Shown in pieces: positions 4,173-38,129 of a stretch of 64,000 bases of DNA. The DNA comes from Leucoraja erinacea (lineage: Eukaryota). Every line of letters starts with the position of its first letter. The first letter of the stretch is position 1. Made by a program: the position numbers and the translations under genes. Under the pieces are notes generated by a model that made no database searches, was not told where the DNA came from, and saw only the letters and a list, made by a program, of their open reading frames with translations. Where the stretch lies: assembly GCF_028641065.1 (NCBI RefSeq), contig NC_073404.1, positions 11,904,001 through 11,968,000 of the forward strand, in the 5' to 3' direction.

Positions 4173-4289
4173 CTGCAGTGGGAAGGGGGGGGGGGGAGAA
4201 GAGGACAAAGAAAGTCAGAGGAAGTAAGGGAGATCCGGCACTCCAGTGGGCTCCAACATGGCCCCAACAATGACTCCAGCCGGCCCCAG

Positions 4290-4530
4290 ATTCGTTTAGT
4301 TTTAGTTTATAGATACAGCCTGGAAACAGCCCCTCCCTACACACTAGGAGTGATTTACAGAGGCCTATTAACCTGTAAACCACACGTCTCTGGAATATGG
4401 AATGATGCCCGAGGAAACCCACACAGTTACAGGGAGAGCGTGCAAACTCCACTCAAACTGCACCCGAGGTCAGTATTGAACCCAGGTCTTCGGTGCTGTG
4501 AGGCAGCAGCTCAACCAGCTGAGCCATTGG
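4290..4530 (-). mobile_element. tRNA-headed SINE (HE1-like)
   Basis: Minus strand reads TGGCTCAGCTGGTTGAGCTGCTGCCTCACAGC...GGGTTCAATACTGACC (pol III A/B boxes) and ends in a (TAAAC)n tail. Confidence 0.75.
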
Positions 4531-5201
4531 TGTTTGTCTGGTCCAGTGATAACGCCAGCCATCCCCAACAATGAACCAAGGCGGGCCAAGGAACATTCGG
4601 GAACTGGTGAGGACCCGAGCCGCCATGGGCAAGGACCCCAGCCATTCCCGGTTGCTGGGAATAGCAGTGGGCAGCCCCAGCAAGGGCCTTATTCACCCCC
4701 TCTCCCCATGACACTGGCACAGCCTCTTGTCGCCAACCTGCGGCCAGGTCCCCACTTCTGCCCTGACCACCGAGCATCAGTGGCCGGAGATGTCTCTGTC
4801 CGGCCGAGGGGGCCTGACCAGGACTCGGGCAACAGGCAACATCCCTGGCAACCAGAGTAAGCCTCAGCAGTCGCAAGGAGAACATGCAAATTCCTCACAG
4901 ACAGCACCCAAGGTCAGGACCGAACCTCTAGCACAGTGAAGCTGCTGCTCTGCAGCTGGGATATGGGCTAAATGCAGACAAATAGGACTGGCCCAGATAC
5001 CAACTTTGTTGGCATGGACATGGTGGGCCGAACGGTCTGTCACTGTGCAGTACAGCTGGATAGTGGGCAGCCCTGGACTATGTGGCATCAAGGCACCACC
5101 CCCGCCCTCTAGCGAGCAGTGCGACGGGATCGGGTCTGGACAGTTGAAGTGGTCGGGCGGAAGGTTTCCGGCGTGGGTGCGGGTCCCCCCCCCCGACCTA
5201 C

Positions 5202-15960: not shown

Positions 15961-16972
15961 TGTCTCAGGGTTCCATTGGAAATGTAACGAGTTGCGGGGC
16001 TGCAGTCAGTGTTAGCCTGGCTATCCCACTCCAAGACATCCCTACCCCTCCACACCTTCAGCCCTACCACAATCCAAAGCTCTGCAACCGTACCCCCATA
16101 TTTATATCAAATTAATTCAACACGCCCCCCCCCCCCCCCCCCCAAGACAGACAGTTCTTTTTTTGAGAGAGATACGGCACAGAAACAGGTACTGAAGAGG
16201 GGTCTCGGCCCGAAAAGTCACACATTCATTTTCTCCACAGATGCTGTCTGACCCGCTGAGTAACTCCCGTTTTATCTTCTGTCTGTCTTCGGTTTAAACC
16301 AGCATCTGCAGTTCCTTCCTACATGCCGTCCCTCTTCCTCCAACATGAGTCTCCAACAAGCTACATATAGGGTTTTATATATATTTTAAACGATAAACAA
16401 ATTATTGAAATATAATCACTGTAGGGTCTGAGTTCGGGAAGCTTAATTTCATTTCGCCGCCGTTTTGTAAGCTTTGGCGCCTTGGAAACCAACCGCTACA
16501 TTTGAATAGAGCGTCCTTTCCGACTGCGAATCATTGTCAGAAATTAGGTGTGGTGGGCAAGCAGGCAGGCCTTGCGTCAAACGCCGCCTGAGCAGAGTTC
16601 ATGCCTGAAGGTTGTTAATTCAAAAGGACAAGCACACGCCGGCCGCTCTCGAGCTCCTAACAGCTGACGACAAACGTTGAAATTATCCTCCCCGAAGCAT
16701 CCAGCGAACTGAACTACTTATAGGCTTTATTTTCAAAATATCTCCAACATTCTCCTATACTCACATCACCTATCTGCCTTAAGGCGCCCAGATCGGCTCA
16801 GAGGTTAATCAGATACCAAGCAAACAACCAGTACGGCAGCCTGTACCAGCGGCCTGCGTTCCCAGGCCGTGCCACCTACTGATCCCGGTTCTCCGTTCCC
16901 TGCCACCACGGCCGTCCATACCCTGTCCGCCGGCCAGTACCCCCATCATCTGCCCTGATCCCTGCCACTCAC

Positions 16973-17345
16973 GGAGCTTCTTCCACATGGCGTAATGACA
17001 GGCGATGAATCCTTTACGTATGGCGCCACGGAATTCCTCGGGATCTTCCGACAGAAACCCGCGCTGCTTCTTGATGCACTTCCACAGGTTGTCGCGGGCG
17101 AAGACCGCTGCCTCCCGCCCGCCGTGACCGTCAAACACGGCGAAGAAGGCCACTCCGGGCCGGGGCTTCGGGCCCTGCTCGCCGTCGCCCTCCTCCTCCG
17201 CTTCCTCCTCCTCGCCGGCGCTCTCGGCCTCCCTGGGCCCCGGCTCGGGTTCGATCACCACCTGGGTCACATCCTCCATGTATTTCCTACCACCCTGGTC
17301 GGAATGAACACTGACCCGCAGCGAGAAAAGGCTGTGAGCCGCCAT
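16973..17345 (-). CDS. PPM1D: PPM1D exon 1
   Basis: gcgATGg start; 373 nt to CTC C|gtgagt. Encodes [18 protein letters not shown]...[14 protein letters not shown]...[16 protein letters not shown]. The six exons sum to 1569 nt (522 aa plus stop). Confidence 0.97.
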
Positions 17346-17870
17346 CGCCGCCGCCGGGTATTGTTTACCTCCAGGGGTGTTTGGGCATGCCCGAAACGTC
17401 AGCGCGTACAGCGCATCATCACGCAGAGGCAGCGCATTACATCACCATCCCTTGTTTACGCCATCGCGCAGAGGCAACGTATTACATCACCATCACTTGT
17501 TGCTACATCATCGCGCAAGGCCAATGCATTACGTCGCATTGCGTCAACGATGACGCAAAAAGTCATGGTGATCGGTTTGATTGCGTCATCACGCACAGGC
17601 GCTGTGGGGCAAAGAGAGGGCCTGTCCCCAGTCAAACCCAACGGCCATCGTGCCCTGAGTGAACGTGTCATAGCAACGCACAAGGGTAAATGCATTGCAT
17701 CACCATCCCTTGTTTCTGCGTCATCGCCATAAGTCCTGCCGATAAGTCACAAACAGGGCAAAGAGAGGGCCCATTCCCAGTTTGATCACCCTCATTGACC
17801 ACGCCACATCATGGCACACAGCCGAACGTCTTGCATCCCCACCCCTTGTTGGTACGTCATCGTAAACCGG
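17346..17870 (-). promoter_or_regulatory. PPM1D promoter/5'UTR CpG island with p53 half-site and bZIP-site array
   Basis: GGGCATGCCC at 17383-17392; repeated ATTACATCA, ATTGCATCA and ATTGCGTCA; high CpG density directly upstream of the ATG. Confidence 0.7.
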
Positions 17871-18004
17871 CTTGATTACGTTGTCTCACATGGGATGGTG
17901 TCTGGTTCAATGGACATCTCCCTTCTCCTATGACATCCTGGGATCTCATCATCTTCCACCCCTGGTTTTTGAGAATAGGCAAGGCTCCCATTGTGGAAAA
18001 GCAC

Positions 18005-18500
18005 GTGCACCTCATCTAACCTCATCTACTGCATCTGGTGTTCCTGATGTGCCCTCCAGTACATCTGTGAGACCAAGCATAGACTCAGCGACAGTTTCGC
18101 TGAACACTTGCGCTTGATCCACCAGTGCACATTGGATCTTCCTGTTGCTCACTATTGTAACTTCCCTTCTCATTACCTTACTGAACTTTCTGTCTTGGGC
18201 CTCCTCCATTGCCAGAGTGAGGCCACACACAGACTGGAGGAACAGCACCTCATATTCCACTGAAGCAGTTTAAATCCCAATGGCAAAACATTGAATTCTC
18301 CAAGTTTAGGTAACAACTTTTCATTCCTCCCCCTGTGCCCCACCTAAACTCTCACCAATCTTTTTCTTTCCCCTCCCCTTCCACTTGCATTCCTTCCGCA
18401 GGTTTCACAACTCTTCAATCCTTTTGTCTCGCATGATTTGCCTTGCATGATTTGCCTTTTCATCTCTGGCCTTCTCTGGCTGAGTTATTCCAACACTTTG
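18005..18500 (+). mobile_element. Penelope-like element 3' fragment (GIY-YIG), degenerate
   Basis: Remnants of SSNLIYCI.C...ETK and LGLLHCQSEA...EEQHLIF. Confidence 0.75.
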
Positions 18501-18809
18501 GGTTTTTTTTTAATGAGGAAAACTTTGTTTACTCAGCATGCAGTTGGAATCTGAAGATGTGGTGGAGGTAGGTTCCATTGTGGCTATAACGAGTGAATTG
18601 GATTAGTATGTGGCAAAGAAAAAATTGCCACAGAGTAAGGGCCGGGTGTGGAACAAGAGAGCCTCTGGAGTGGGTTGCCAGGACAGATGTGTGTTATTTT
18701 CTAACCATTCAATTATTTTATAACAGTTTTCCAACACCATTAATGCTAAGCCAAGACTAACCTGACACATGTGGGGTGACTCACTGGGAGTTAGTGCTCA
18801 ATCCATTTG

Positions 18810-19130: not shown

Positions 19131-19169
19131 TTGGTGCTGAATCCATCCATCCATCCATCTATCTATCTA

Positions 19170-20226
19170 TCTATACATAACTAAAACTCTGATCTTGTGC
19201 TTTTCCGGTTTGAGTAGTTTTTCTATTTGCGCAGAAACAGTACACGATAGCGCTACCTTTTTTGCCACCTTACCATTCTCCTGTGCTCAAGTGCAACAAG
19301 TTTTGTTCCGATCGATGGTATATTGTAAAAGTTATTAAGGTTTAAAAATCGTATAAACCGCGCATGCGCAGATTGGTGTCAGTTACCGCCACGCAGTTTG
19401 GTCTCCTCTCCTGTCAATCAGGAAGGGGCATCGCCGGGATTGCCCGCACCCGCTGTCAGTCGGCTGGAGGTCGCCAACTCGCCACCGGCGTCGCGGTGAA
19501 GGAGTGGCAGCGGCCGGCAACGCACGACGAGCTGCGGCCGCTCGGTACCTGGTGGGGAGGGTGGTGCCACGGGCTGAGCCCGGGGATTGGCCTGGACTGG
19601 AACCAAGCCTGGTGCTGGAGCTGGAGTGAGGGCTGAACCCGGTGCTTGGGATGGGGCCGTAACCGGGACCGAGAAAGAAGCCGCTGCCTGGGCTGGAACC
19701 AAGGACGAGCCTGGGTCCGGGGTCAAGGACAAGCCCGGAGATGAAGTCGGGGCGTGGATTGGAGCCCAGGCAGCGGCCGAGCTGAGGCATGGAGTCTACA
19801 GCCAGGGCCAGGCCGAGTACGAGAACCAGGCTGAGTTCCAGGCCCTGGCGCTGCTCTACGACCTGGGTAGATGCTGGGGCAGGGAATGGTAGTGAGGGTC
19901 GGAGGATGAGGGAAATGAGGAAGAGGGAGATGGGGTGGGGAGTGAGGTGGTAGAGGGAGATGGGGGGGGTGTGGAGGAGGGAGGTGGTAGAGGGAGATGG
20001 GGGGGGTGTGGAGGAGGGAGATGGGGTGGCAGAGGGAGATGGAGAGAGTGTGGAGGAAGGAGGGGGGGTGGGAGAAGGGCGATGGGGAATATTGGAATAT
20101 TGCATTGGGGGAACGGGTTGCCTTGGGGGAATGGATGGGTGATGGAATATTGCGCGCGGGAACGGGTTGCGTTGGGGGACCAGGCCTCCCATGTGACAGG
20201 GACCCAACGGTTCCCACTTAGACTAA
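19170..20226 (+). mobile_element. non-autonomous Helitron-like element with captured gene fragment
   Basis: 5' A|TCTATACATAACTAAAAC; 3' hairpin GGGACCC-AAC-GGTTCCC (20199-20215), 7 nt, then CTAA|T (CTRR). No TSD and no TIR. Confidence 0.65.
19425..19866 (+). pseudogene. SAC3D1-like (SAC3/GANP domain) exon fragment, frameshifted and internally deleted
   Basis: Collinear motifs RLEV, AVKEWQRPA..ELRP, RYLVGRV and LRHGVYSQG..NQAEFQALALLYDLG|gt resemble remembered human SAC3D1 (RLEV, AVKEYSRPA..QLRP, RYLAGEV, AFQGLFLLYNLG). Confidence 0.65.
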
Positions 20227-22361: not shown

Positions 22362-22508
22362 TCAGGCCGGCAAGACTCTGTTGCCGCCCCTCTCGGACAG
22401 GTCGATGGTCTTGGTGTTGCTGCCGGCTGCGGAGCCGGAGCTGGTCTCCTCGCTGCCGCCAAGCGGGTCACGGCCACAACACAGGGTGGTCACCAGGCAT
22501 GTCCGGAA
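22362..22508 (-). CDS. OPNP: pinopsin exon 5
   Basis: cag|TTC CGG; FRTCLVTTLCCG...NRVLPA*, 147 nt. Includes helix 8, the CC palmitoylation site and a terminal VxPx. Confidence 0.9.
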   Translation of the reverse strand, partial: FRTCLVTTLCCGRDPLGGSEETSSGSAAGSNTKTIDLSERGGNRVLPA

Positions 22509-25419
22509 CTGTGTGGGAAAGAAAGGAGAGACGGTCAGAGATGAGGGAGGGGAGCTCAGTGACCTCCCACATCTCAAAGACATGCGTGTGTCAGTGGGTT
22601 AACTGGCTGCTGTAAATTGCCCCGAGTGTGTAGCTGGGTGGTAGAATCTGGGGGGAGTTCATGGGAATGTGGGGGGAAGAAAATGGAATTAGTGTAGATG
22701 GATGATTGATGGTTGACTTGGGTCAGGTGGATTAGAGGGGCTGTCCCTGTGTTGTACTGTATGACACACAAAACAAAGCACAGTGGGGCAAGTTCAGATC
22801 ACCTGGCCTCTGTACATCCCTGTCAGCTGAGTGAACTGTTCTCTCTGGCCTAATCTGGGTCACTTTTTAGTCCAGAGACTTAAGCACAAAGCTATCATCG
22901 AACATTCCAGATGCAGTTCTGCGCTACTGGAGGTGCAGTACGTCAGTACCAACCTAAGGTCACATCAGGTAGATGCAAACACCCTTACAATCCATCACAC
23001 ATTCCAGACTCCCTACTATTGACTCCATCTACACTTCTCTCTTCTGCCTGCTCTCGTCAAGCAGAAGATACAAAAACATAAAAGCACATACCACAAGACT
23101 TGGGAACAGCTTTTTCACTGCTGTTATAAGACTTCTAAGTTGTTCTCCCATATAAGGTTCTAGTCCCAATCTTCCAACCTTCCTCATTGCTGACATTGGG
23201 CATTTTCGCCAGCACTGTAACACGGCAGTGCAGAAAACTATATTCGACACTGTGGTATTTTTACCTTTGTACAACTACCTGTTGTACTTGTGTACATTTT
23301 TTTAATGTGTCATATTATCAAAGGAATCAAGGGATATGGGGGAAAAAGCAGGAAGCAGGAAAAGTGGGGTGCTGATTTTAGATGATCAGCCATGATCATA
23401 TTGAATGACGGTGCTGGCTCGAAGGGCTGAATGGCCTACTCCTGCACCTATTTTTCCATGTTTCTATGTTTTTGGAAAGTGGGATGAAAGCGGATCTCCC
23501 GCAGAAAACCCTTGCGGTCACGGGGACAACGTCCAAACTCCGCACGGATATGCACTCCTAGTCAGTATCGAACCCGGGTCTCTGGCGCCGTAAGGCAGCA
23601 ACTCAAACTGCAGCACCACCATGCAGAGTTGCTGCCTTACAGCGTCTGTGACCCGGGTTCAATCCTAACTATGAGTGCTTGTCCGTGGGGAGTTTGTACA
23701 TTCCCCGCATGACCTGCGTGGGTTTTCTCCAGGTGCTCCGTTTTCCTCCCACACTCCAAAGACTGATTACGTGATTAATGAGAATTTTAAGCTCCAGACC
23801 AATATTATAATGAATGTTCTTTGTGGCTTGGTTCTACTGTTGCTATTCATGCTCCATATGGTATAAGATTGGAAGGACTTTACTCAGGATGGTGGTAATG
23901 TGGCTTATATTCATACATCGATCATAACTTGCCTTCGCATTAATGGAAACCACAAGCTTTGAATCATAAAATTATGACAAGGGAATTCGCCGACGACAGG
24001 AGATAGGGAATTGAATGGGACGACCAAGAATGATAATGTTATTGCTTTAGAGGAATGTTGATTTGGCAATAATACGCAGAAAAGTCAAGATAAGAATTAA
24101 TCTGCATGTTCAGCATTGAATTAATGAGAGGGATAGATGAATATGCTTTGATGAAAGTGCTTGTTGATCCAAATTTAATAGACAAAACAAGATTTGGAGA
24201 ACAATTTGCTGAATTGTTGCCAATTAAGAGTTTTTTTTCTTTCAGTCTGAAGAAGGGTCCCGACCCAAAATGTCACCTATCTCTTTTCTCCAGTGATGCT
24301 GTCTGACCCGCTGAGTTACTCCAGCACTTTGTGTCTACCTTTGGTGGAAACCAGCATCTGCAGTTCCTTCCTAGATATCTCGGGGTTCCCTTTCACTCTG
24401 TGCCTGGCCTTTGCAATTTTTTAGCCTGGCTTTCCACTCCATAGATCTACTTTTTCTCATAATCATCTGTTGGCAGCTGAGAGTCCCTCCCCGCAACCCG
24501 CTCCCCGATCCCCCAGACCATTTAATTCCACGGCACGCATACCATCAACCCCTCCCTTTGGTCCCTCTGCATCACAGACTGTGCAGTAAGGAACTGCAGA
24601 TGCTGGTTTGCACTGAGGATATTCACAAAGTGCAGAGTGGCTCAGCGAGTCAGACATCATCTCTGGATAGAAGGAATGGATGACGTTTTGGGTCGTCTGA
24701 AGAAGGGTATCGACCCAAAACTTCGCTCATTCGTTCTATCCCCAGAGATGCTGCCTGTCCTGCTGAGTTGCTCCAGCATTTTGTGCCTATCTTCAGGGAC
24801 TCTGCATTCTGCAACATCTCACAGAAATGTTCAGTCTTCAGATCTAGGACAGCAACACACCACCGACTGACTCCAGTGTCACTTCCAAGAGTCTCTTGAC
24901 CGCTGGATGCTTGTGCTTGCAACACCGTCACATTTTAAACTTTTGCATCTTCTGCTCTATTTCGGATAGAAATATCTGCACTTCTCATCTCAGCGATCTA
25001 CCAGCTGCTGATTGTAGGTCAAATAGATTAATTGCATGCAAGCCCAGGTTTTGTGAATTTAATATCCTAAAATGCCAAAAGCCAAGGCCCAAGAATGAAA
25101 AGGAATCCCTCATATCCAGGCATGGCTACTGTGGCTTCTCTGCCACAGAAGGCAGCAGAGGCCATTTCACTGGATGTTTTCACGAGAGAGTTAGATATAG
25201 CTCTTTGGGCTAACTGAATCAAGGGATATGGGGAGACAGCAGGAATGGGGTACTGATTTTGGATGATCAGCCACGATCATGTTGAATGATGGTGCTGGTT
25301 CGAAGGGACGAATGATCTACTCCTGCACCTATTTTCTATGTTTCTATTTTTATTATCTGATTTAATTCAATAGCATGCAAACACAAGCTTTTCATTATAT
25401 CTCAGTGCACATGACAATA

Positions 25420-26145
25420 ATAAACTCCTCCAACCTCATTTACTGTATGCGCTGTTCCAGGTATCAACTCCTGTACATTGGCGAGACCAAGCGCAGGTGT
25501 AATGTCTTGGTACAATATGGAGCATGTATTACATATATAACATTTCGTGCCCAGACATCACATCTCCCTCTTTACTTTACAGACATCACCGGCACTGACA
25601 TTTATAGTATATGCATGTTCCATATTGTACCAAGACATTACATCTCCCTCTTCACTTCAAAGATCTTACAGCAGGGTCACCGATCATTTCACTGAACACC
25701 TCCGCTCAGTCCGCCTTAACTTGCCTGATCTCCCGGTTGCTCAGCACTTTAACTCCCCCTCCCATTCCCAATCTGACTTTTCTGTCCTGGGCCTCCTCCA
25801 TTGTCAGAGTGAGGCCCAGCGCAAATTGAAGGACCAGCACCTCATATTTTGCTTGGGTAGCTTACACCCCAGTGGTATGAACATTGACTTCTCTAACTTC
25901 AAATAGCCCTTGCTTTCCCACTCTCACCATCCCCTCCCCCTTCCAGTTCTCCCACCAGTCTTACTGTCTCCGAATACATTCTATCTCTGTTCTGCCCACT
26001 CCCCTGACATCAGTCTGAAGAAGACCATGACCTGAAACATCATCCATTCCTTCTCTCCAGAGATGCTGCCTGTCCCGCTGAGTTACTCCAGCATTTTGTG
26101 TCTATCTTCGATTTAAACCAGCATCTGCAGTTCTTTCCTACACAT
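25420..26145 (+). mobile_element. Penelope-like element 3' part (GIY-YIG endonuclease and 3' repeat), interrupted
   Basis: NLIYCMRC...LYIGETKR / EHLRSVR..LPVAQHFN...LGSLHPSGMN. A 173-bp insertion sits at 25498-25670. Confidence 0.88.
25498..25670. mobile_element. 173-bp TGT...ACA hairpin mini-element with 5-bp TSD
   Basis: GCAGG at 25493-25497 and 25671-25675. A 24-bp perfect inverted repeat TGTAATGTCTTGGTACAATATGGA spans 25498-25642. Confidence 0.8.
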
Positions 26146-26721
26146 TAATAAACCAATTCTCCCTGAAGTTCTTGGCGAATGAGTTACCTCTTTTATGTGA
26201 GATTTTACCCTGTCAGCCGCTGTACTCCCAATATCAGTACACTTCAAAAGTCTTACCGGCTAGACAGCACCTTGGGATGTCCTTGGGTCCTCTTAAATCA
26301 ACTGCCCAGAGATTCCATCCCCAGACAGGCCACCAGATGGCAGTGGCAGGCAGGCTCCAGAGATACAGGGAGAGAGGGTTTTGGATAATCCGCTCTAAAG
26401 GGAAATTCCTATGATTCGGCAACTGGGTCACCTGGTATTGTTTGCCAAGTCAACCACCCATTCACCAGGACCTACTTACCATGTTCTCTTTAAACTCACC
26501 TCTTCTGTTTCCCATGCTCCTTTATAAACTTAAAAGATTAACTGGAATGTATATATTTTTGTTCATGAATGAAAAGTATTGGAATATTAGTAAAATCTAT
26601 TAGTCTGGCACCAGTGAATTCCTAACCCTGCCAGATGAACGGATTTCTATTGTGTTAAGGGTAGGAATGACACAGTGGTGCAGCTGGTAGAGCTGCTGCC
26701 TCACAGCGACAGAGACCTGCT

Positions 26722-27210
26722 TTGATATGGTATGGTATGGCAACTGCTCTGTCTCTGACTGGAAAGCACTACAGAGGGTGGAGAAAACTGCCCAACGCAT
26801 CACCGGTTCCTCATTCCCCAACATTGAGACTGTACAAAGCAAGCAATGTCTGCGGAGGGCGCGCAGCATCGTCAAGGACTGCTCTCACCCCAGCCACAGT
26901 CTGTTTACCCTCCTCCCATCCGGGAGGCGCTACAGGTCTCTCCGTTGCCAGACCAGCAGGTCCAGGAACAGCTTCTTCCCTGCGGCTGTTACATTACGTA
27001 ACTCTGCACCTTGGTGATTGCCAGTCACCCCCCCCCCCCCACCCCGGACACTCCTTCCCCCAGAAAAATTGCACTACTACTACTGTATGTACATATATAT
27101 ATTTATTGCTCATTATTCTATGTTCGCTCTTCTGGGGAGATGCTAACTGCATTTCGTTGTCTCTGTACTGTACACTGCACAATGACAATAAAGATTGAAT
27201 CTGAATCTGA
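26722..27210 (+). mobile_element. Rex1/Babar-type LINE 3' fragment nested in a SINE
   Basis: VWYGNCSVSDWKALQRVEKTAQRITG...HPSHSLFTLLPSGRRYR; AATAAA followed by a (GAATCT)n tail. Confidence 0.8.
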
Positions 27211-28438
27211 TCCTGACCTCAGGTAGACATAAAATGTTGGAATAACTCAGCGGGTCAGGCAGCATCTCTGCTCGACCTGAAACGACACCCATTCCTTCTG
27301 TACAGTGATGCTGCCTGACCCGCTGAGTTACTCCAGCATTTTGTGTCTACCTGTGATTTAAACCAGCATCTGCATTTATTTTCTACACATTTGATCCTGA
27401 CCTCGGCTGCTGTCTGTATGGAGTTTTGTAAGTTCTCCTAGTGTCCGCGAGGGTCTCCTTTGGCTTCCTTCCACATCCCAAAGATCTGCGGGTTTGTAGG
27501 TTAATTGGCCTCTGTCAATTGCTGCCAGTGAGTTGGGCGTGAAAGTGGATGTGAAAGTGGGATAACATAGAACCAGAGCAAACGGGTGATCGATGGTCAG
27601 CGTGGACTCGATGGACGCAAGGACCTGTTTCCGTGCTGTATCTTTCAATCAGTAGCAACATCACTGAGGCCGATTGGATAAACCACCTCACGGCCTTGAG
27701 ACCCAGCCACATCCCCCTACTCCTGTGATAGTCTCACAACCAAAACTCTGCAGAAGTGGGAGGAAGAGAAGACCGTACAACTAATGGTGCTCGTCATAAA
27801 ATATTGTGCTGGAGTTGTTGGAAATGAAAGAGTATTCTCCCGTGCAGCACCTCAGGCAGGTGAATGGAGGAATAATTAGTTTAGTTTAGTTTATTAATGT
27901 TACATGTACCAAGATGCAGTGAAAAGATGTTGTTTGAGTGCTATCCAGTTAAAGATTATGTATGAATACAATCAAGCTGTCACAGTGCACATTTAAAAGA
28001 TAAGAGGTACAACATTTAGTTCAAGATATAACAATTGAGGTCCAATAAAGTCCGAATAAAGATAGTCCGATTCAATGAGGTAGAGGGGAGGTCAGGACTG
28101 TACTCTAGCTGATGAGAGGACCGTTTAGTTACCAGATAACAGCTGGGAAGAATTTGGCAAAAAAAATAACTGGGAATATTTAACAAAGACCTCGTTTGAA
28201 CATCAAGGAATTGATTGATTGGGTGACAAGCCGGCTGTTTGTCAACCATTCCACTACAAAAGGTGGAGGACTGACAGTGATGGGTACGTCAGGCACTAGT
28301 GATGGGTGACTGGAGGGGGGGGGGGGGGGGGGGGGGGGGGGAAACAGTGTGGGGTGAGCAGTCACGCAATGAAAGGTGCAGGGAGGCGTGAATGGAGAGT
28401 TGGAGACCCACCCCACCCCCGGGATGGACCGGCCGTAC

Positions 28439-28678
28439 CTGTTTGTTCATGAAGACGTAAATGACGGGGTTGTAGATGGTGGCGGTCTTTGAGAAGTAGG
28501 AAGGCATGGAGGCCAGGGTGGGCTGAATCACGATGTCCTTATTAATTGCAATCACCATGGCAAAGGTGGTGTAGGGCAACCAGCAGACCAGGAAGGCCAT
28601 CACCATGGCGACCACCATGCGGGACACCTCTCGCTCGGCGCGCTGCGTGCTCTGGCTGTCCTTCTGTTGCTGAGCGAC
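28439..28678 (-). CDS. OPNP: pinopsin exon 4 (TM6-TM7, retinal-binding Lys)
   Basis: cag|GTC...CAG|gtacgg, 240 nt. Encodes AEREVSRMV...CWLPY...[22 protein letters not shown] (K296, NPxxY). Confidence 0.97.
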
Positions 28679-28764
28679 CTGCAGAGGGAGAGAAGATGGT
28701 TCACTCACGTTCTCTGGCATCAGTCACAGCACCGGGAGTGGACCGCTGTCCCGTCAAACGCTCC

Positions 28765-29175
28765 AAAGACAGGACTTGATATCTAAAGGGGCTGCTCCTT
28801 GCCTTCTGGCGACATTTCACACCCACCATCCTCATCGTTAGACACCCAGTGCGTAGGGGAGAGGGTAGGGTTGACGATGTCCTGGTTGGGTTGCTCCTAG
28901 GCCTGGCCATCTGCGAGTCATGGCGCCAGGCGGAAGAGGGCTTTGCCCCTTTTCCGGGTTTACATCTGTGCCCGGGTGGTTTCAGAGAGGGACTGTGCGC
29001 TGTCCACGGACACCCTATGGGATTTCCAGGACATGTATCCTTAATAAGGATGGGGAAATAGTTGTTTAAGGAAAATTTGTTTTACTTGTATTGTGGTAGT
29101 GGGTTTTGTTTTGAATTATTTGGTATTGTAAATAGTATTGTAAATAATTGAACAAATCTATTTTTGGTAAAAGAA
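28765..29175 (+). mobile_element. L1/Tx1-type LINE 3' end, copy 1
   Basis: KGLLLAFW.HF.P...LLLGLA; A-rich end; clear similarity to 30260-30680. Confidence 0.7.
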
Positions 29176-30029
29176 AAGACAGGACTTGCACACAGAGTGA
29201 AGTTCCCTCCACACTGTCCAGTCATATACTCCCTATGAGGAGCTTTAAACTACATCTAACCTCTAACCAGAACTGCATCCGCTGGGAGGTCAGCTTTCTC
29301 AACCCTCGAGTCAGTGATTTGCAAGTGCTCCTCAACTCTGGAACACAATTCGTCACATTCCTCTATTCTATCAGAATCCAACAGTTTAACACCCAGTGCA
29401 TTATCGAATGCCTAATGGGATGGCTGAATGATTGGTCCATGTGGTGAAATGGCAATTGCTGCTGAGGGAACGGATGTGCTACAATGCTGAGACCTCTGCA
29501 TCTTCCCCTTTGCCCCACCTACCCGAGTTAGATCTGATCGCGTTTATTGTCTGATCGGATCAGATAATTTGCAAAACAAAGTTTTTCACTATTTCTTGGC
29601 ACACGTGACAATAATAAACCTAAACCTAAATAAACTGAAACCTTTCACAGAATCAAAGAATGTGGAAACAAACCCATTGGCCCAACATGCACATGGAGCA
29701 TCAGGGGCAAGTTGGGCCAAAGGGCCTGTTTCCTGGACTATGTAGGACTGTGGAGTCTGAGATGCGGTTGCCTTTGGTCACTGCACTCCCCCTGCTGGTG
29801 ATGGGAGAAACTCCGTCTACCAAGGCAGGCAGGATAACGGTCACAGACAAGACAGTTGCCACTGAAGTCTCCTGTACAGGCTCCTCCCCCACACCCTGCA
29901 CTTGCTCACCCTCATTCACCGTCTGGGCACAAAGTGTTGGGGTTAGGAAGGAGAAATAGATCAGCCATGATTGAACGGCGGAGTAGACTTAATGGGCTGA
30001 ATGGCCTAATTCTACACCTATTCCTTATG

Positions 30030-30680
30030 ACCTTAAAGTGTCAATTTTTGTCGCGCGATTGGGGGTCCCTCCATTCAGGGATTCTCCCCCTCTATGTCGG
30101 GGACCTAGAGTGGATGGTACTACACTGAGGAGTCCTATGTAACCTGTTTCTCTCGCGGTTCACAGACTCACCAGCCGCCTGCCACTTTTGCGGGCTGGAC
30201 GAGTCTGTGTTCCACATCTACATGGAGTGTGTGAGGTTGCAGCCTCTGTACCGAATTCTAAAAGGGCTGCTGCTTGCCTTCTGGCTGCACTTCACACCCA
30301 CCTTTGGACACCCTGTGTGTAGGGGAGAGGGTAGGGCTGAAGATGTACTGGCTGAGTTGCTCCTAGGCCTGGCCAAGCTTGCCATCCACGGGTCACGGCG
30401 CCAGGCGGAGTAGGACTCTGCCGAGCCGGCTGCTGCCCCTTTGCCAGGATTGCATCTGCGCCCAGGTGGTTTTAGAAAGAGACTATGCGCTATCCAAGGG
30501 CACTTTGGGGGATTTCCTGGACCGCTGGTGGAATACATCTTTAATAAGGATTGTGATATAGTTATTTAAGAATATTTGATTTACTGGTATCATGGTGGTG
30601 GGTTTTGTTTTGAATTATTTAGTATTGTAAATAGCATTATAAATACTTGAACTAATCTATTTTTGCTTAAATTTAAAAAA
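30030..30680 (+). mobile_element. L1/Tx1-type LINE 3' end, copy 2
   Basis: C-terminal zinc knuckle CHFCGLDESVFHIYMEC, then LLLGLAKLAIH, then an A-rich tail. Confidence 0.75.
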
Positions 30681-30739
30681 GGAGCTGATGCTAGAAGCCT
30701 CCGGCCGTCGCGTCACAGTTGTGAGTACAGACGTTAGGC

Positions 30740-31275
30740 GGTCATGTTACAGTTGTACAAGACAATAGTGAGGCCACATTTAGAGTATTGTGTTCAGTTT
30801 TGGTCACCCTGTTATAGGAAAGATGATAAATTGGAAAAAGTGCAGAGAAGATTTACGAGGATGTTGGCAGGATTTGAGGGCCTGACCTATAGGGAGAGGT
30901 TGAGCAGGCAAGAACTTTATTCCCTGGAGTGCAGGAGGATGAGGGGTGAGGATACCCTTTTTGAAGGGTATAAAATCATGTGGGTTATAGAGTCTTTTAC
31001 CCAGAGTAGGGGAATCGAGAACAAGAGGACATAGGTTTAAGGTTTTTTTTACACAAAGGTTGGTGGGTATATGGAACAAGCTGCCAGAGGAGGTGGTTGT
31101 GACAGGTACTATCACAATGTTTAAAAGACATTTGGACGGATGCATGGATAGGACAGGTTTAGAAGGATGTGGGCCAAATGCAGGCAGGTTAGATAAGTGT
31201 AGATGGGGCATGGGAATGTCGGCGTGGGCAAGATGGGCCGAAGGGCCTATTTCCATGCTGACTCTTTGACTCTGA
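30740..31275 (+). mobile_element. CR1 LINE 3' fragment
   Basis: LYKTIVRPHLEYCVQFWSP motif and a CR1 tail. Confidence 0.85.
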
Positions 31276-31613
31276 GTTGGTGTTCAGAGCTCCTGAGTGC
31301 GGGGTGACTCAAAATGCTGCTCCTATCGGCTGCTGAGAGCTCAGATCTACATTTGGAACACACTGAAGATTAACCAACATTTTAACAGGCCCTGTGATAT
31401 CATCAAAGCAGTTTCTGAACCTGTAGCGATTCATGCCTATGCCCAGAGACGATGCTTTGGGTAGCACTAAACCCTTCAGACGGTGGGCAAATGGCCCTGA
31501 CCTCCTTGCCGGTTGGCTGGGGGACCACATGAACAAAACGGAACCACAGAGCGACTGGAGGCCGAAGGGAGGAGAGCACCGATCCCCGTGGCAGAACCAT
31601 TCAGCAAACTCAC

Positions 31614-31759
31614 GGCTCGGAGGACCACCAGCAGACTGGAGTAGGAGAAGATGATCAGGCTCAGGGGCATCATGAAGCAGGTGACGAAGAGGGCCACCAC
31701 GTAGCTGTTATTGTTGGTCCCACCCGTGTACCAATTTGGTCCACAGGACGTGCGCAGTC
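31614..31759 (-). CDS. OPNP: pinopsin exon 3
   Basis: cag|GA CTG...GCC|gtgagt, 146 nt. Encodes [40 protein letters not shown], close to chicken pinopsin [20 protein letters not shown]. Confidence 0.97.
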
Positions 31760-32199
31760 CTGGAGGCCCAGAGGGAAAATGGCGTTAATAACACAAAGCA
31801 GTCATCTCCAGAGTCTCCCCTCTCCCAGCGCACCCTGCCCCAGACAGAAGTCCCTCCATGTCAATAGGGGAAGGTCAGGTATATTCCCAACTACTTGCAC
31901 ACAGCAAGGTCCCACAACAGTAACATGATAACATAGGGAAGCCTGCTTCACTGTGATCGAATGAGTGATGAGTGGCGCCATATTTTGTGTGTAAGTGCGA
32001 GATGGGCTATGATTAGACTGCATTTGGAGTATTGTGTGCAGTTCTGGTTGTCCATCACAGGAAGGGCGTGGAGACTTTGGAGAGGGTGCAGAAGAGGATG
32101 ATCAGAATGTTAGCTGCATTAAAGAGTTTAGCTACAAGGAGAGTTTGGAGAAACTTGGAATGTTTTCTCTGCAGAAGTCGAGGATGATCCAGAATGTTC

Positions 32200-32495
32200 C
32201 ATGCACCTGACAGAGCTTGAGAGAATTAAAGAGGTGTGCCAAGCTTGTAGCTACAAGAAGAGAGGCTGAAATCGCTGAAAAACAAAGTATGAGAAAGTTT
32301 AATACTTATGAAAATGTGATATTTCCGACTTTTTTTTAAATGACTTTGCAAAACATCTGTTTTCGCTTTTTTATTATGGGGTATTGTGTGCAGTTTGATG
32401 ATAAGAAAAATGAATTTAATCCATTTTGGAATAAGGCTGTAACGTAACAAAATGTGGAAAAAGTGGAGGGGTCTGAATACTTTCTGAATGCACTG
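32200..32495. mobile_element. Tc1-like transposon end fragment inside a CR1 remnant
   Basis: Terminus GGGGTCTGAATACTTTCTGAATGCACTG|TA; CR1 sequence on both sides. Confidence 0.75.
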
Positions 32496-33346
32496 TAAGT
32501 ATGTAGAATCATGTGGCATCAAGTAGGCAGTTGGAATATTTTTCCCAGTGTCTAAATGTGAAAGACTAGATAGGTTTAGGACGAGAGAGGCAAAGTTAAA
32601 AGGAGGTGCTAGATACGTTTTTTTTACAGAGATTGCATGAGGCCTAGAACGCGCTGCCAGGGGTGGTGGAGGCAGATATGATAATGGTGTTTGAGGCTTT
32701 TAGATAGAGATATGGAAATAGATGCAGGGAATGGAGGGACATGGATCACATGCAGACAGAGATTAGTTTAACAGCATCATATCCGCATGACCGCTGCGGA
32801 TATTCTTTGCTGTTGTGTTCTGTGTTCTATTTGAACAACTGATCATCAGCTCGTGAGGGCAGAAGCTAAAGGGCACGTTGGGAAGGGGGAGAGGGAAGGA
32901 AAGAAAGTGTGATCCCAAGGGACGGTCCAAGTCCAGGTCCAGGTCCGAGTGAGGATTTGGAGACACGGGAGAACGTGCAAAGCTCCCCTTGTGTAGACCC
33001 AGTGAGAGGGAGTGTGGGACCGGACCAGAGGCTGAGGGTGGGGGGAACCTCTTACAGGCATCTACTGAATTGAAAGGTTTGGTAGGCTAGGGATTGTGAC
33101 CCAGGTGCCAAGGACCACAGATATCAGATGAATGCATCGATCTAGAATTTGCAGAAGGCTGCAGGAGTAGCAGATTCCAGGCTGGTACAGGAGGGGGTCG
33201 AGAGGGATTGGGGTTCCACAGTGAAGGCAGAGGGACAGCCGTGTGGAATCGAGTGTGGAGTAGCAAGAGGGAGTGCCCATTGGAAGGGTCTGTGCGGCGC
33301 CGTGGTGAGTTGGGGGGGGGGTCCTGAGTCTTGCTCCGGCACTTAC

Positions 33347-33529
33347 CCTCAGTAACGTAACTGCACCATCCGAACAGAGGCGGGGCCGTCCAGACCAGTG
33401 ACCAGAGCCAGGTGAAGAGGCAGCCCCAGACCGCGTGCCGCTGCTGAAAGCGGAAATCACCCAAGGGTTTGCAGACGACCACGTAACGTTCGAAGGCCAG
33501 GATCGCCAGCGACCACAGCCCCACGATAC
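33347..33529 (-). CDS. OPNP: pinopsin exon 2
   Basis: tag|GT ATC...GAG G|gtaagt, 183 nt, 14 nt longer than rod-opsin exon 2 (169 nt), matching the known pinopsin intron-2 shift. Encodes GIVGLWSLAILAFERYVVVCKPLGDF. Confidence 0.97.
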
Positions 33530-33734
33530 CTACCGGGAAAGACAGCCTCACCACTGGGTACCCGGGAGGACCAGACAATCCATGTCTCATCCTGACTCCC
33601 TCCAATCTCTTCTTCTCCCCCTCTCTCTCTCTCTCTCTCCAACCATCGCACAAGATTAAGCCATTCAACACAACCTTCCCTGTGCTGCCAGTGGCTCCTA
33701 TGATACAGAGAGGGGCCCATCTGTTTTGTTCACA

Positions 33735-35940
33735 GGATCTGGGTGTCATAGGCAAGGCCAGCAAGAAGGATAGTAAAAGCTTCTTTAGGTTTGTGAAGAG
33801 AAAAAAAATTAGTTAAGCCCAAAGTTGGACCCATGTAGACTGAAAAAGGTGAATTTATTATGGGGAACAAGGAAATGGCAAATGAGTTGAACAGGTACTT
33901 GTGGCCAGAGGATCTGGGGTGGTGAAGGAACTGAAGGAAATTCACATTAGGCAGGAAATGGTGTTGGGTAGACTGATGGGACTAAAGGCTGATAAATCCC
34001 CAGGGCCTGATGGTCTGCATCCCAGGGTACTTATGGAAGTGGCTCTAGAAATCGTGGACGCATTGGTGTTCATTTTTCAATGTTCTATAGATTCAGGATC
34101 AGTTCCTGTGGATTGGAGGGTAGCTAATGTTATCCCACTTTTTAAGAAAGGCGGGAGGGAGAAAACAGGAATTATAGGCCAGTTAGCCTGACATCGGTGG
34201 TGGGGAAGATGCTGGAGTCAATCATAAAAGATGAAATTGCGGCACATTTGGATAGCAGTAACAGGATCGGTCCAAGTCAGCATGGATTTACAAAGGGGAA
34301 ATCATGCTTGACTAATCTTCTGTAATGTATCTTGAGGATGTAACTGGGAAAATGCACAAGGGGGAGCCAGTGGATGCAGTGTACCTGGATTTTCAGAAAG
34401 CATTTGATAATGTCCCACATAGGAGATTAGTGGGCAAAATTAGGGCATATATTGGGGGTAGAATGCTGACATGGATAGAAAATTGGTTGGTAGACAGGAG
34501 ATTAACGGGTCCCTTTCAGAATGGCAGGCAGTGACTGGTGGGGTACTGCAAGTTTTGGTGCTGGGATCGCAGCTATTTGCAATATACATCAATGATTTAG
34601 ATGAAGGGATTCAAAGTAACATGAGCAAATTTGCAAATGACACAAAGCTGGGTGGCAGTGTGAACTGTGAGGAGGATGCTATGAGAATGCAAATTGACTT
34701 GGACAGGTTGGGTGAGAGGGCAGATGCATGGCAGATGCAGTTTAATGTGGAAAAAAGTGAGGTTATCCGCTTTGGTAGCAAAAACAGGAAGGCAGATTAT
34801 TGTCTAAATGGTGTCGTTGGAAAAAGGGGAAGTACAATGGGATCTGGGGGTCCTTGTGCATCAGTCAATGAAAGTAAACATACAGGTACAGCAGGCAGTG
34901 AAGAAAGCGAATGGCATGTTGGCCTTCATAACAAAAGGAGTTGAGGATAGAAGCAAAGAGGTCCTTTGCAGTTGTATAGGGCCCTAGTGAGACCACACTT
35001 GTAGTATTGTGTGCAATTTTGGTCCCCTAATTTGAGGAAGGACATTCTTGCTAATGAGGGAGTGCAGCGTGGGTCTACAAGGTTCATTCCCGGGATGGCG
35101 GGACTGTCATATGCTGAGAGAATGGAACATCTGGGCTTGTATACTCTGGAATTTAGAAGGATGAGAGGATATCTTTTTGAAACATATAAGATTATTAAGG
35201 GTTTGGACACGCTAGAGGCAGGAAACATGTTCCCGATGTTGGGGAGGTCCAGAACCAGGGGCCTCAGTTTAAGAATAAGGGGTAAGGCAATAGACAATAG
35301 GTGCAGGAGTAGGCCATTCGGCCCTTAAAGCCAGCACCGCCATTCAATGTGATCATGGCTGATCATCCCCAATCAGTACCCAGTTCCTGCCTTCTCCCCA
35401 TATCCCCTGACTCCGCTATCTTTAAGCCTTCTCTAGCTAGCTCTCTCTTGAAAGTATCCAGAGAACCGGCCTCCACTGCCTTCTGAGGAAGAGAATTCCA
35501 CAGACACAACTCTCTGTGAGAAAAAGTGTTTCCTCGTCTCCATTCTAAATGGCTTACCCCTTATTCTTAAACTGTGGCCCCTGGTACTGGACTCCCCCAA
35601 CATCGGGAACATGTTTCCTGCCTCTAGCGTGTCCAACCCCTTAACAATCTTATATATTTCAATAAGATCCCCTCTCATCCCTCTAAACTCCAGAGTGTAC
35701 AAGCCCAGCCGCTCCATTCTCTCAGCATATGACAGGCCCGCCATCCCGGGAATTAACCTTGTAAAGCTACGCTGCACTCCCTCAATAGCAAGAATGTCCT
35801 TCCTCAAATTAGGGGACCAAAACTGCACACAGCACTCCAGGTGTGGTCTCACTAGGGCTCTGTACATAGGGCATTTAGAACGGAGATGAGGAAACACTTT
35901 AACTCACAGAGAGTTGCGAGTCTGTGGAATTCTCTGCCTC
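33735..35940 (+). mobile_element. CR1 LINE interrupted by a minus-strand CR1 at 35288-35865
   Basis: KSPGPDGLHPRVL, DFQKAFD, FANDTKLGG motifs; the sequence resumes after the insert at ...GGCATTTAGAACGGAGATGAGG. Confidence 0.9.
35288..35865 (-). mobile_element. CR1 LINE 3' fragment
   Basis: ORF 35433..35897 contains ALVRPHLECCVQFWSP; CTATTGT tail. Confidence 0.9.
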
Positions 35941-37170
35941 ATAGAAAATAGGTGCAGGAGGTCATTTGGCCCTTCAAACCAGCACTGCCATTTATTGTGA
36001 TCATGGCTGATTATCCACAATCAGTAACCCGTGCCTGCCTTCTCCCCATACCCCTTGATTCTGCTAGCCCCTAGAACTCTATCTAATTCTCTTTTAAATT
36101 CATCCAGTGAATTGGCCTCTACCGCCTTCTGTGGCAGAGAATTCCACAAATTCACACTCTCTGGTTGAAACAGTTTTTACTCACCTCAGTTTTAAATGGC
36201 CTCTCCTTTATTCTTAGACTGTGGCCCCTGGTTCTGGACTCCCCTAACATTGGGAACATTTTTCCTGCATCTAGCTTGTCCAGTCCTTATATAATTTTAT
36301 ATGTTTCTATATGATCCCTTCTCATCCTAAATTCCAGTGAATACAAGCCCAGTCTTTCCAATCTTTTCTCATATGACAGTCCCGCCATCCCGGGGATTAA
36401 CCTCGTGAACCTACGCTGCACTGCCTCAATAGCAAGGATGTCCTTCCTCAAATTAGGAGAACAAAACTGCACACAATATTCCAGATGTGGTCTCACCAGG
36501 GCCCTGTACAACTGCAGAAGGACCTCTTTACTCCTATACTCAAATCCTCGCATTATGAAAGCCAACATGCCATTAGCTTTATTCACTGCCTGCTGTACCT
36601 GCATGTTTACTTTCAGTGACTGGTGTACAAGGACACTGAGGTTTTGTTGCACTTCCCTTTATCCTAATCTGACACCATTGAGATAATAATCTGCCTCATT
36701 GTACTTGCCGCCAAAGTGGATAACTTCACATTTATCTACATTATACTACATCTGCCATGCATCTGCCCACTCACCCAACCTGTCCAATTTACCCTACAAA
36801 CTCCTAGCATCCTCTTCACAGTTCACACTGCCACCCAGCTTTGTGTCAGCTGTAAATTTGCTAAAGTTACTTTTAATTCCATCATCTAAATCATTAATAT
36901 ATATTGTAAGTAGTTGCGGTTGTGGCCCCAGCACCGAGCCTTGTGGCATTCCACTCGCCACTGCCTGCCATTCTGACAGGCACCCGTTTATTCCAACACT
37001 TTCTTCCTGTCTGCCAATCAATACTCTATCCATGTCAATACCCTACCTCCAATACCATGTGCCCTAATTTTGCCTACCAACCTCCTGTGTGGGACCTTAT
37101 CAGAAGCCTTCTGAAAGTCCAGATACACTACATCCACTGGCTCTCCTTCATCCATTTTACTTGTTACTTC
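35941..37170 (-). mobile_element. CR1 LINE, 5'-truncated
   Basis: DFQKASDKVPH, PQGSVLGP and RPHLEYCVQF motifs. Confidence 0.9.
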
Positions 37171-37753
37171 TTGCTCTTTCAAAGATACAGAGTTCCAGAA
37201 TTTGGATCCAGTGGCGGAGAAGGTACGGCAGCATCTTTCCAAGTCAAAGCCAATGTCTGATTACCTTGGCTTGGGCAAACACCTCACCATTTTGCTCTTC
37301 TCACCTACACTGGCTCTTTAAGAGAAGATTCGACCCACTTCTTGCTTTTTCAGAGATACAGAATGAACCACGAATCTCCATGGTATGAAAAGCTGTGGAC
37401 TAAATGCAGGTGAATGGGAACAGTGTAGAATGGTTAGAATAGACATGGTGGGCTGAAGAGCCTGTTTTTGTGCTGGATGACTCTCTCACCCTCAGTCATG
37501 AAGTTATTGATTGGGGATGATCAGCCATGATCACAATGACTGGCGAAGGGCCGAATGGCCTCCTCCTGCACTTATTTTCTATGTTTCTATGAATGGATAA
37601 AACAGGCTTGAGAGGCCAAATAGTCCTAATTTGCCTGGTTGAGACCAGGGAACATGTAGATATCTCCTTCTCAAGGAGGGGGGCTCCCTATGTTATGGAC
37701 CAGGGGAGAGGCTGATCTCCACAGAGCTACAGGGACTACCCACAAGTACTCAC

Positions 37754-38087
37754 CTGTCAGAGACACCATGAAACCTTCGAACTGACACATGGTCTCCCCC
37801 AGGGTGAAGTAGCCGTGGATGTTGTTGGAGAAGCTGACCGTGCTGCCGAAGAAAGTGACCATCAGGTTGGCCACTGCCAGGTTGACCAGGATGTAGTTGA
37901 GGGGTGAACGGAGTTTCTTGTACTTGAGAGACACCAGGATCACCAGGCCATTGACAAAGGAGGCCAGGAAGACCACCAGCCCCATCAGCGTGGCCACCAC
38001 CATGTAGGTGCTCTTTGAGGCGTAGTGCGGCCATTGGGGGCCCTCAAAAGCACCAACGGTCCCGTTGTGAGGGGTAGCAGGAGCCAT
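37754..38087 (-). CDS. OPNP: pinopsin exon 1
   Basis: ATG at 38087 with an in-frame TGA upstream; 334 nt to ACA G|gtgagt. Encodes NGT sequon, FEGPQWP, YKKLRSPLNYILVNLAVANL and MCQFEGFMVSLTG (C110, E113). The five exons sum to 1050 nt (349 aa). Confidence 0.97.
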
Positions 38088-38129
38088 TGGAGCAGAATCC
38101 ACTGCTGCCAGTTCTCCTCACTCTGTGGA

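Follow-up and report, generated by a model that had tools for sequence, protein, structure and literature searches.

A decayed non-autonomous Helitron with a SAC3D1 first-exon fragment belongs to a high-copy family in a skate genome

Introduction

Canonical Helitrons (HLE1) are defined by a 5′ TC, a hairpin before the terminal CTRR at the 3′ end, a target between A and T, and ends common with RepHel elements (PMC11417382). In the described mechanism, the transposon is nicked by RepHel at its 5′ TC, one strand is displaced as far as the hairpin-CTAG, and the copy is integrated at AT (PMC4778049). Among vertebrates, HelibatN3 of Myotis bats carries the promoter, first exon and intron start of NUBPL and is present in ~1000 copies (PMC4224331, PMC4778049), and a bias of Helitron capture toward gene 5′ ends was also reported in bats (PMC4224331). 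Heli1Xen1 of Xenopus laevis has made repeated captures of coding sequence, 17 of 19 from gene 5′ ends, and its 64 insertions, at most 17 per fragment, are young (PMC12001565). The vertebrate precedents in these sources are mass first-exon amplification in vesper bats and low-copy capture in Xenopus, and skates would be an independent lineage. We found no published report of Helitron gene capture in cartilaginous fish, although Repbase, Dfam and supplementary files may hold such repeats as unnamed families, and no literature linking SAC3D1 to a Helitron; skates and sharks receive no mention in the HELIANO main text.

Here we describe an element lying upstream of PPM1D in a skate genome, whose closest precedent is bat HelibatN3/NUBPL. 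We hold with high confidence that it is a decayed, likely immobile non-autonomous Helitron, that its ancestor likely took up SAC3D1 DNA in early skates, and that RepHel likely copied it to ~500-1000 sites.

Results

Layout of the element and its ends

The window is the whole 64,000-nucleotide stretch analysed (G000:C28:11904001-11968000), and the genome searched, which the named protein matches indicate to be that of a skate, comprised 2.19 Gb. The features, in window coordinates, are:

19170..20226, plus strand: non-autonomous Helitron (HLE1), 1057 bp between A19169 and T20227
19170..19459, plus strand: Helitron 5′ terminus (TC) and 5′ body, common to sister subfamilies with other cargo
19460..19866, plus strand: captured SAC3D1 exon 1 (host L045 ~4180-5110), without ATG and with frameshifting indels
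19571..19795, plus strand: decayed AEPGDEVGAW-type repeat, native to skate SAC3D1 exon 1
19795/19796: 246-bp internal deletion of the cargo (host 4794-5039 missing)
19867..19930, plus strand: captured GT donor together with ~40-60 bp from the start of SAC3D1 intron 1
19931..20090, plus strand: purine-rich simple-sequence tract, differing from copy to copy
20091..20226, plus strand: Helitron 3′ body, with hairpin at 20199-20215 (one mismatch) and CTAA end
16965..17345, minus strand: PPM1D coding exon 1, a neighbour outside the element, inside its own CpG island (16950-17600, observed/expected 1.09)

The landmarks named in a preliminary description of this DNA all hold, namely TC at 19170 preceded by A19169, the hairpin, CTAA at 20223-20226 followed by T20227, the peptide segments RLEV (19461) and AVKEW (19493), and the GT donor at 19867. 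That description had also read the hairpin and CTAA as a Helitron 3′ end. This reading stands for the family, in which hairpin-CTAG followed by T is repeated, but in the window copy the hairpin (GGGACCC-AAC-GGTTCCC), taken alone, folds no better than shuffles (-3.3 kcal/mol, z -0.37) and CTAA is a decayed form of the family CTAG. The hairpin of the autonomous partner has -8.2 kcal/mol, with z -1.99 relative to shuffles. The interval 19420-19870 is GC-rich (68%), with a CpG observed/expected ratio of 0.73. An ATCC/ATCT microsatellite adjoins the 5′ end of the element at 19141-19169, and similar ATCT runs are seen there in many family copies.

The Helitron family and its RepHel partners

The first 30 bases of the element have 179 exact matches in the genome (control 0), and a search with its 5′ 256 bp returned 4677 first-look candidates; 40 of these were scored, and identity was 83-88% in the 39 that are not the window copy itself. 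End statistics were collected from the best-scoring matches, which are not a random sample, and in these loci TC forms 54 of 67 distinct 5′ ends, with A preceding 52 of the 67 and 46 of the 54 TC-type ends. At the 3′ side of the same kind of sample, CTAG was found in 33 of 45 distinct ends and T comes next in 41 of 45, including 32 of the 33 ends of CTAG type. The lack of a target-site duplication, first remarked on the window copy, extends to the family, since a duplication of 3 bp or more was absent from all 12 two-ended copies (TA/TA only in four, a single base in one). At L002, L005 and L025, a nested insertion was seen at an AT site, with the CTAG end of one Helitron inside the first bases of another (TCTA/TAC).

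The Helitron_like_N profile matched 78 places in the genome, and 8 of these were fetched at 20 kb each. RepHel-coding copies on C1, C2 and C6 begin with TC(T)TATATTACTAAAACTCTG preceded by A, nearly the same as the 5′ end of the element, and those on C1 and C8 terminate in the same hairpin-CTAG followed by T as the family, with 85% identity between the 3′ end of the C8 copy and the last 66 bp of the element. These end-sharing copies are broken, their longest frames having 269-732 aa. Two RepHel frames on C38 and C600 (L092-L095) are open, with 1739 and 1578 aa and 97.6% identity over 8 kb, and belong to a subfamily ~80% identical at the DNA level. They represent a young Helitron subfamily, possibly active in this genome until recently; the 20 kb fetched for each contained no matching 3′ end. 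By the definition given in PMC11417382, the element is a non-autonomous HLE1. Assignment to HLE2/Helentron, which inserts at T/T and has an endonuclease domain in many partners, was rejected on the target, which here is A/T. No endonuclease Pfam domain was matched in the RepHel frame scanned.

The cargo and its host gene

The SAC3_GANP profile matched 14 places in the genome (five exons on C7, three matches on C29, and six dispersed), and only C7 and C29 hold multi-exon loci. The many exons of the C7 gene suggest that it is GANP/MCM3AP. The C29 gene has two exons and matches PDB 9rv1 (E 1.3e-8) and five batoid SAC3D1 proteins; on these matches it is identified as SAC3D1. When the element was aligned to this locus, the alignment started ~75 bp past the ATG and ran through the repeat block and the donor to 40-60 bp into the intron, with 85% identity to the host over 19796-19930. 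A capture of SAC3D1 exon 1 together with its intron start had been proposed from the window alone, and the identity of the exon and its continuation through the donor bear this out. The extent needs correction, however, because the captured exon is 5′-truncated, lacking the ATG, the first ~25 codons and the promoter, and has lost 246 bp internally. The same deletion was found in most of 29 other SAC3D1-cargo loci, several of them with another 5′ end, and the deleted region is kept in copies such as L038-L042.

The SAC3/GANP homology expected in the preliminary description was not detected by Pfam, which matched none of the five window frames, but a 104-aa window frame does match skate SAC3D1 (E 7.9e-15), its only match. 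The single-copy, syntenic alternative is excluded by the location of the true SAC3D1 on another contig and by the repeated termini. The pattern spanning the exon/intron junction has 493 genome matches at ≤2 mismatches, host gene and window copy counted (control 0), and a DNA search with the SAC3D1 cargo gave 995 first-look candidates; the junction and 5′-end matches confirm the suspected genome-wide amplification. Over the cargo, contig depths in organisms B, C and E added up to values far above single-copy depth, and these were left out of copy-number estimates.

Because the donor and the start of the intron are retained, the alignment indicates capture at the DNA level. Retrogenes nested in Helitrons are known from bats (PMC4224331), and the SAC3D1 piece might likewise have been a processed (retroposed) pseudogene fragment, or another repeat class, inserted into the Helitron. 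We consider this hardly credible: besides the retained donor and intron start, there is no junction to exon 2 and no sign of poly(A) or a target-site duplication, and the ALG13 cargo described below holds upstream DNA and ~190 bp of intron. A processed pseudogene is refuted by the retained intron, there being no exon-exon junction.

The parent genes are present elsewhere in the genome, SAC3D1 on C29 and ALG13 on C12. Exon 1 of the host SAC3D1 has 8 extra letters in the assembly (L045:4706-4714) that shift its frame. They are missing from the short-read contigs of X1 and X5 (2/2 DNA runs), in which the host frame is intact, and they are either an assembly error or an allele. A pseudogenised host SAC3D1 was rejected, since the 8 fewer letters in the X1 and X5 contigs restore the frame.

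Other cargos between the same ends

Of 30 loci picked by their 5′ end, 13 carry SAC3D1 (one behind a later insertion) and 4 carry ALG13, and the others hold GC-rich pieces without a placed source. The ALG13 cargo, ~600 bp long, is antisense in the element; it reaches from upstream DNA over the ATG, exon 1 and the donor ~190 bp into the intron, and derives from the host region G000:C12:5686715-5687318. The exons of this host gene match Pfam PF04101, and on these matches we take it to be ALG13. A search with this cargo gave 477 first-look candidates, and it was located at L003, L026, L027, L030 and L157-L175; among the 19 copies analysed, 16 have the 5′ body of the window element and 12 the autonomous 3′ end.

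A third GC-rich cargo (L007:1880-2110, L019, L126-L155) gave 217 candidates, with Helitron parts in all 30 loci fetched; its source gene was not found among 50 loci (some duplicates), which are Helitron copies or truncations. Further interiors without a placed source were seen at L002/L005/L029 and at L011/L021/L028. In some copies the SAC3D1 intron is followed by another GC-rich piece, ~110 bp long (L065:1690-1800, L196-L215; 62 candidates), which suggests sequential capture. No source for this piece was found in the 20 loci, all Helitron copies or truncations.

The SAC3D1 repeat and the age of the capture

Skate SAC3D1 (P0001, P0002) has an acidic Gly/Ala/Pro repeat of ~100 residues inside the SAC3_GANP domain. 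In the host gene the AEPGDEVGAW-type repeat lies in exon 1 (L045:4325-4795), and the insert is present in 2/2 skate proteins and in 0/3 other batoid proteins. The AWxGTKxEPG block of the window, for which no counterpart had been recognised, is a decayed copy of this native repeat. Four sites set P0002 apart from the host and P0001, and there the copies carry the P0002 residue in 13/16, 15/16, 39/44 and 36/43 cases; at sites where the difference is confined to P0002, copies mostly side with the host (4/5 and 14/16), and two more sites are mixed or have too few copies. Since the cargo keeps ancestral skate residues, capture most likely took place in early skates, after the repeat arose.

At the window locus, contigs from organisms B and C bridge the 3′ junction of the element with 0 and 1 other letters, respectively (31 of the letters belonging to the element), and pieces of the element at ~96% identity were seen in organism E. 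An empty orthologous site had been suggested as something to look for in related species, but none was seen among the joints listed for B, C or E; because the 3′ junction is shared by B and C and the ~96% pieces occur in E, all three appear to carry the insertion, which would predate their split. The repeat-derived interval 17960-18502, upstream of PPM1D, is absent in organism B, where a contig joins 17959 to 18503.

Decay of the copies and the neighbours of the element

Private non-CpG changes fell on codon positions 1-3 at similar rates (72/1514, 104/1761 and 92/1603; p 0.33), and 14 of 16 long copies have frameshifts, a pattern of neutral decay. CpG transitions in the copies (181/1226, 0.148) were about four times as frequent as in the background (121/3207, 0.038), and would imply germ-line methylation of the copies.

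The ATG of PPM1D (PDB 8t2j match, E 6.5e-38) lies on the minus strand at 17345, at a distance of 1825 bp from the element, as had been estimated earlier (~1.8 kb upstream of the start). Next to PPM1D is a multi-exon opsin gene, on the minus strand at about 22365-38117, with cone opsins as its best PDB matches; it presumably resembles pinopsin. The element had been said to add a CpG island here, and formally it does, the window copy still passing CpG-island thresholds. A functional role is another matter. The distance of 1.8 kb from the PPM1D ATG, the persistence of the element in organisms B, C and probably E, the island thresholds, and the transcripts driven by bat HelibatN3 copies (PMC4778049) would all suit an element of the same origin whose window copy was co-opted, either to regulate PPM1D as a CpG island or enhancer, or to supply an antisense exon toward the opsin gene. 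We judge such co-option quite improbable. PPM1D has its own stronger island, and the cargo, which lacks the SAC3D1 promoter, is on the strand opposite both neighbours, with its donor facing away from PPM1D. Divergence in organism E (12/305 letters in the element and 29/~709 around PPM1D exon 1) gives no sign of extra constraint. CpG loss in the window copy (10/84, compared with 366/2270 in siblings) relative to non-CpG loss (19/387 and 954/12527) is in about the same ratio as in its siblings. RNA depth over the cargo was ~1 or less, in a shallow sample of about 5% of X24 and 1% of X22 in which PPM1D exon 1 and host SAC3D1 were themselves at ~1x, and no spliced joint was listed at the window copy in ~5% of one run, which has low power. 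As weak evidence, no chimeric protein with the cargo was found among longer homologues, only SAC3D1 orthologues being returned. Most likely the window copy has no function.

Discussion

We propose that a genomic SAC3D1 piece, comprising the greater part of exon 1 with its donor and the beginning of the intron, would have been taken up by a Helitron ancestor in early skates, and that a RepHel transposase with the same ends would have mobilised the resulting non-autonomous copies in trans. The uptake was probably internal, by template switch or gap repair, or by read-through that stopped at another member of the family. Each cargo begins at roughly the same place beyond the common 5′ body; a purine-rich tract comes next, and then a common 3′ body that matches the autonomous element. 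Because the cargos share this internal position and both bodies, and because ALG13 is antisense, these routes are probably to be favoured over plain 3′ read-through, which fits less well since it would leave a host-derived terminator. No Helitron terminus was found within ~14 kb of the host SAC3D1 exon, and near the ALG13 exon there was one 29-bp match only, which is not convincing. The capture intermediate is therefore not preserved.

What is new is a high-copy gene-capturing Helitron in a skate, with at least two identified cargos, the type of capture being already known. A broader version is conceivable, though we think it unlikely: one skate Helitron lineage would have exchanged one CpG-island first exon after another at a fixed position in its interior (SAC3D1, ALG13 and one or more others), seeding well over 1000 donor- or promoter-bearing cassettes, some of them now alternative promoters or exon traps in skate genes. 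If true, serial first-exon shuffling would be an independent replay of bat HelibatN3 in cartilaginous fish. Skates allow a test of whether Helitrons favour CpG-island first exons and of how cargo swaps between fixed ends. Gene annotation, the calling of CpG islands and read mapping in skate genomes can be led astray by the hundreds of fragments resembling SAC3D1 and ALG13, and the cargo preserves an early state of the skate-specific SAC3D1 repeat.

Compared with the canonical HLE1 Helitron as described in PMC11417382, the element has TC, hairpin and CTRR, A/T insertion and RepHel-shared ends, and the window copy differs by the hairpin mismatch and by CTAA where the family has CTAG. Like HelibatN3 in the accounts cited above, the skate family is a non-autonomous canonical Helitron in a vertebrate, with DNA-level capture of a first exon and its donor, roughly 10^3 copies, and several first-exon captures in one lineage. 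Unlike HelibatN3, its host is a cartilaginous fish and its SAC3D1 cargo is a coding exon of ~900 bp without promoter or ATG; the skate ALG13 cargo does include the ATG, with upstream DNA and the donor, in an orientation antisense to the Helitron. HelibatN3 copies drive transcripts; in the skate, no spliced joint was listed at the window copy in the shallow RNA sample. With Heli1Xen1, as reported, it shares repeated captures by a vertebrate Helitron and a bias toward gene 5′ ends, but the skate copies number hundreds per cargo and are 8-25% diverged.
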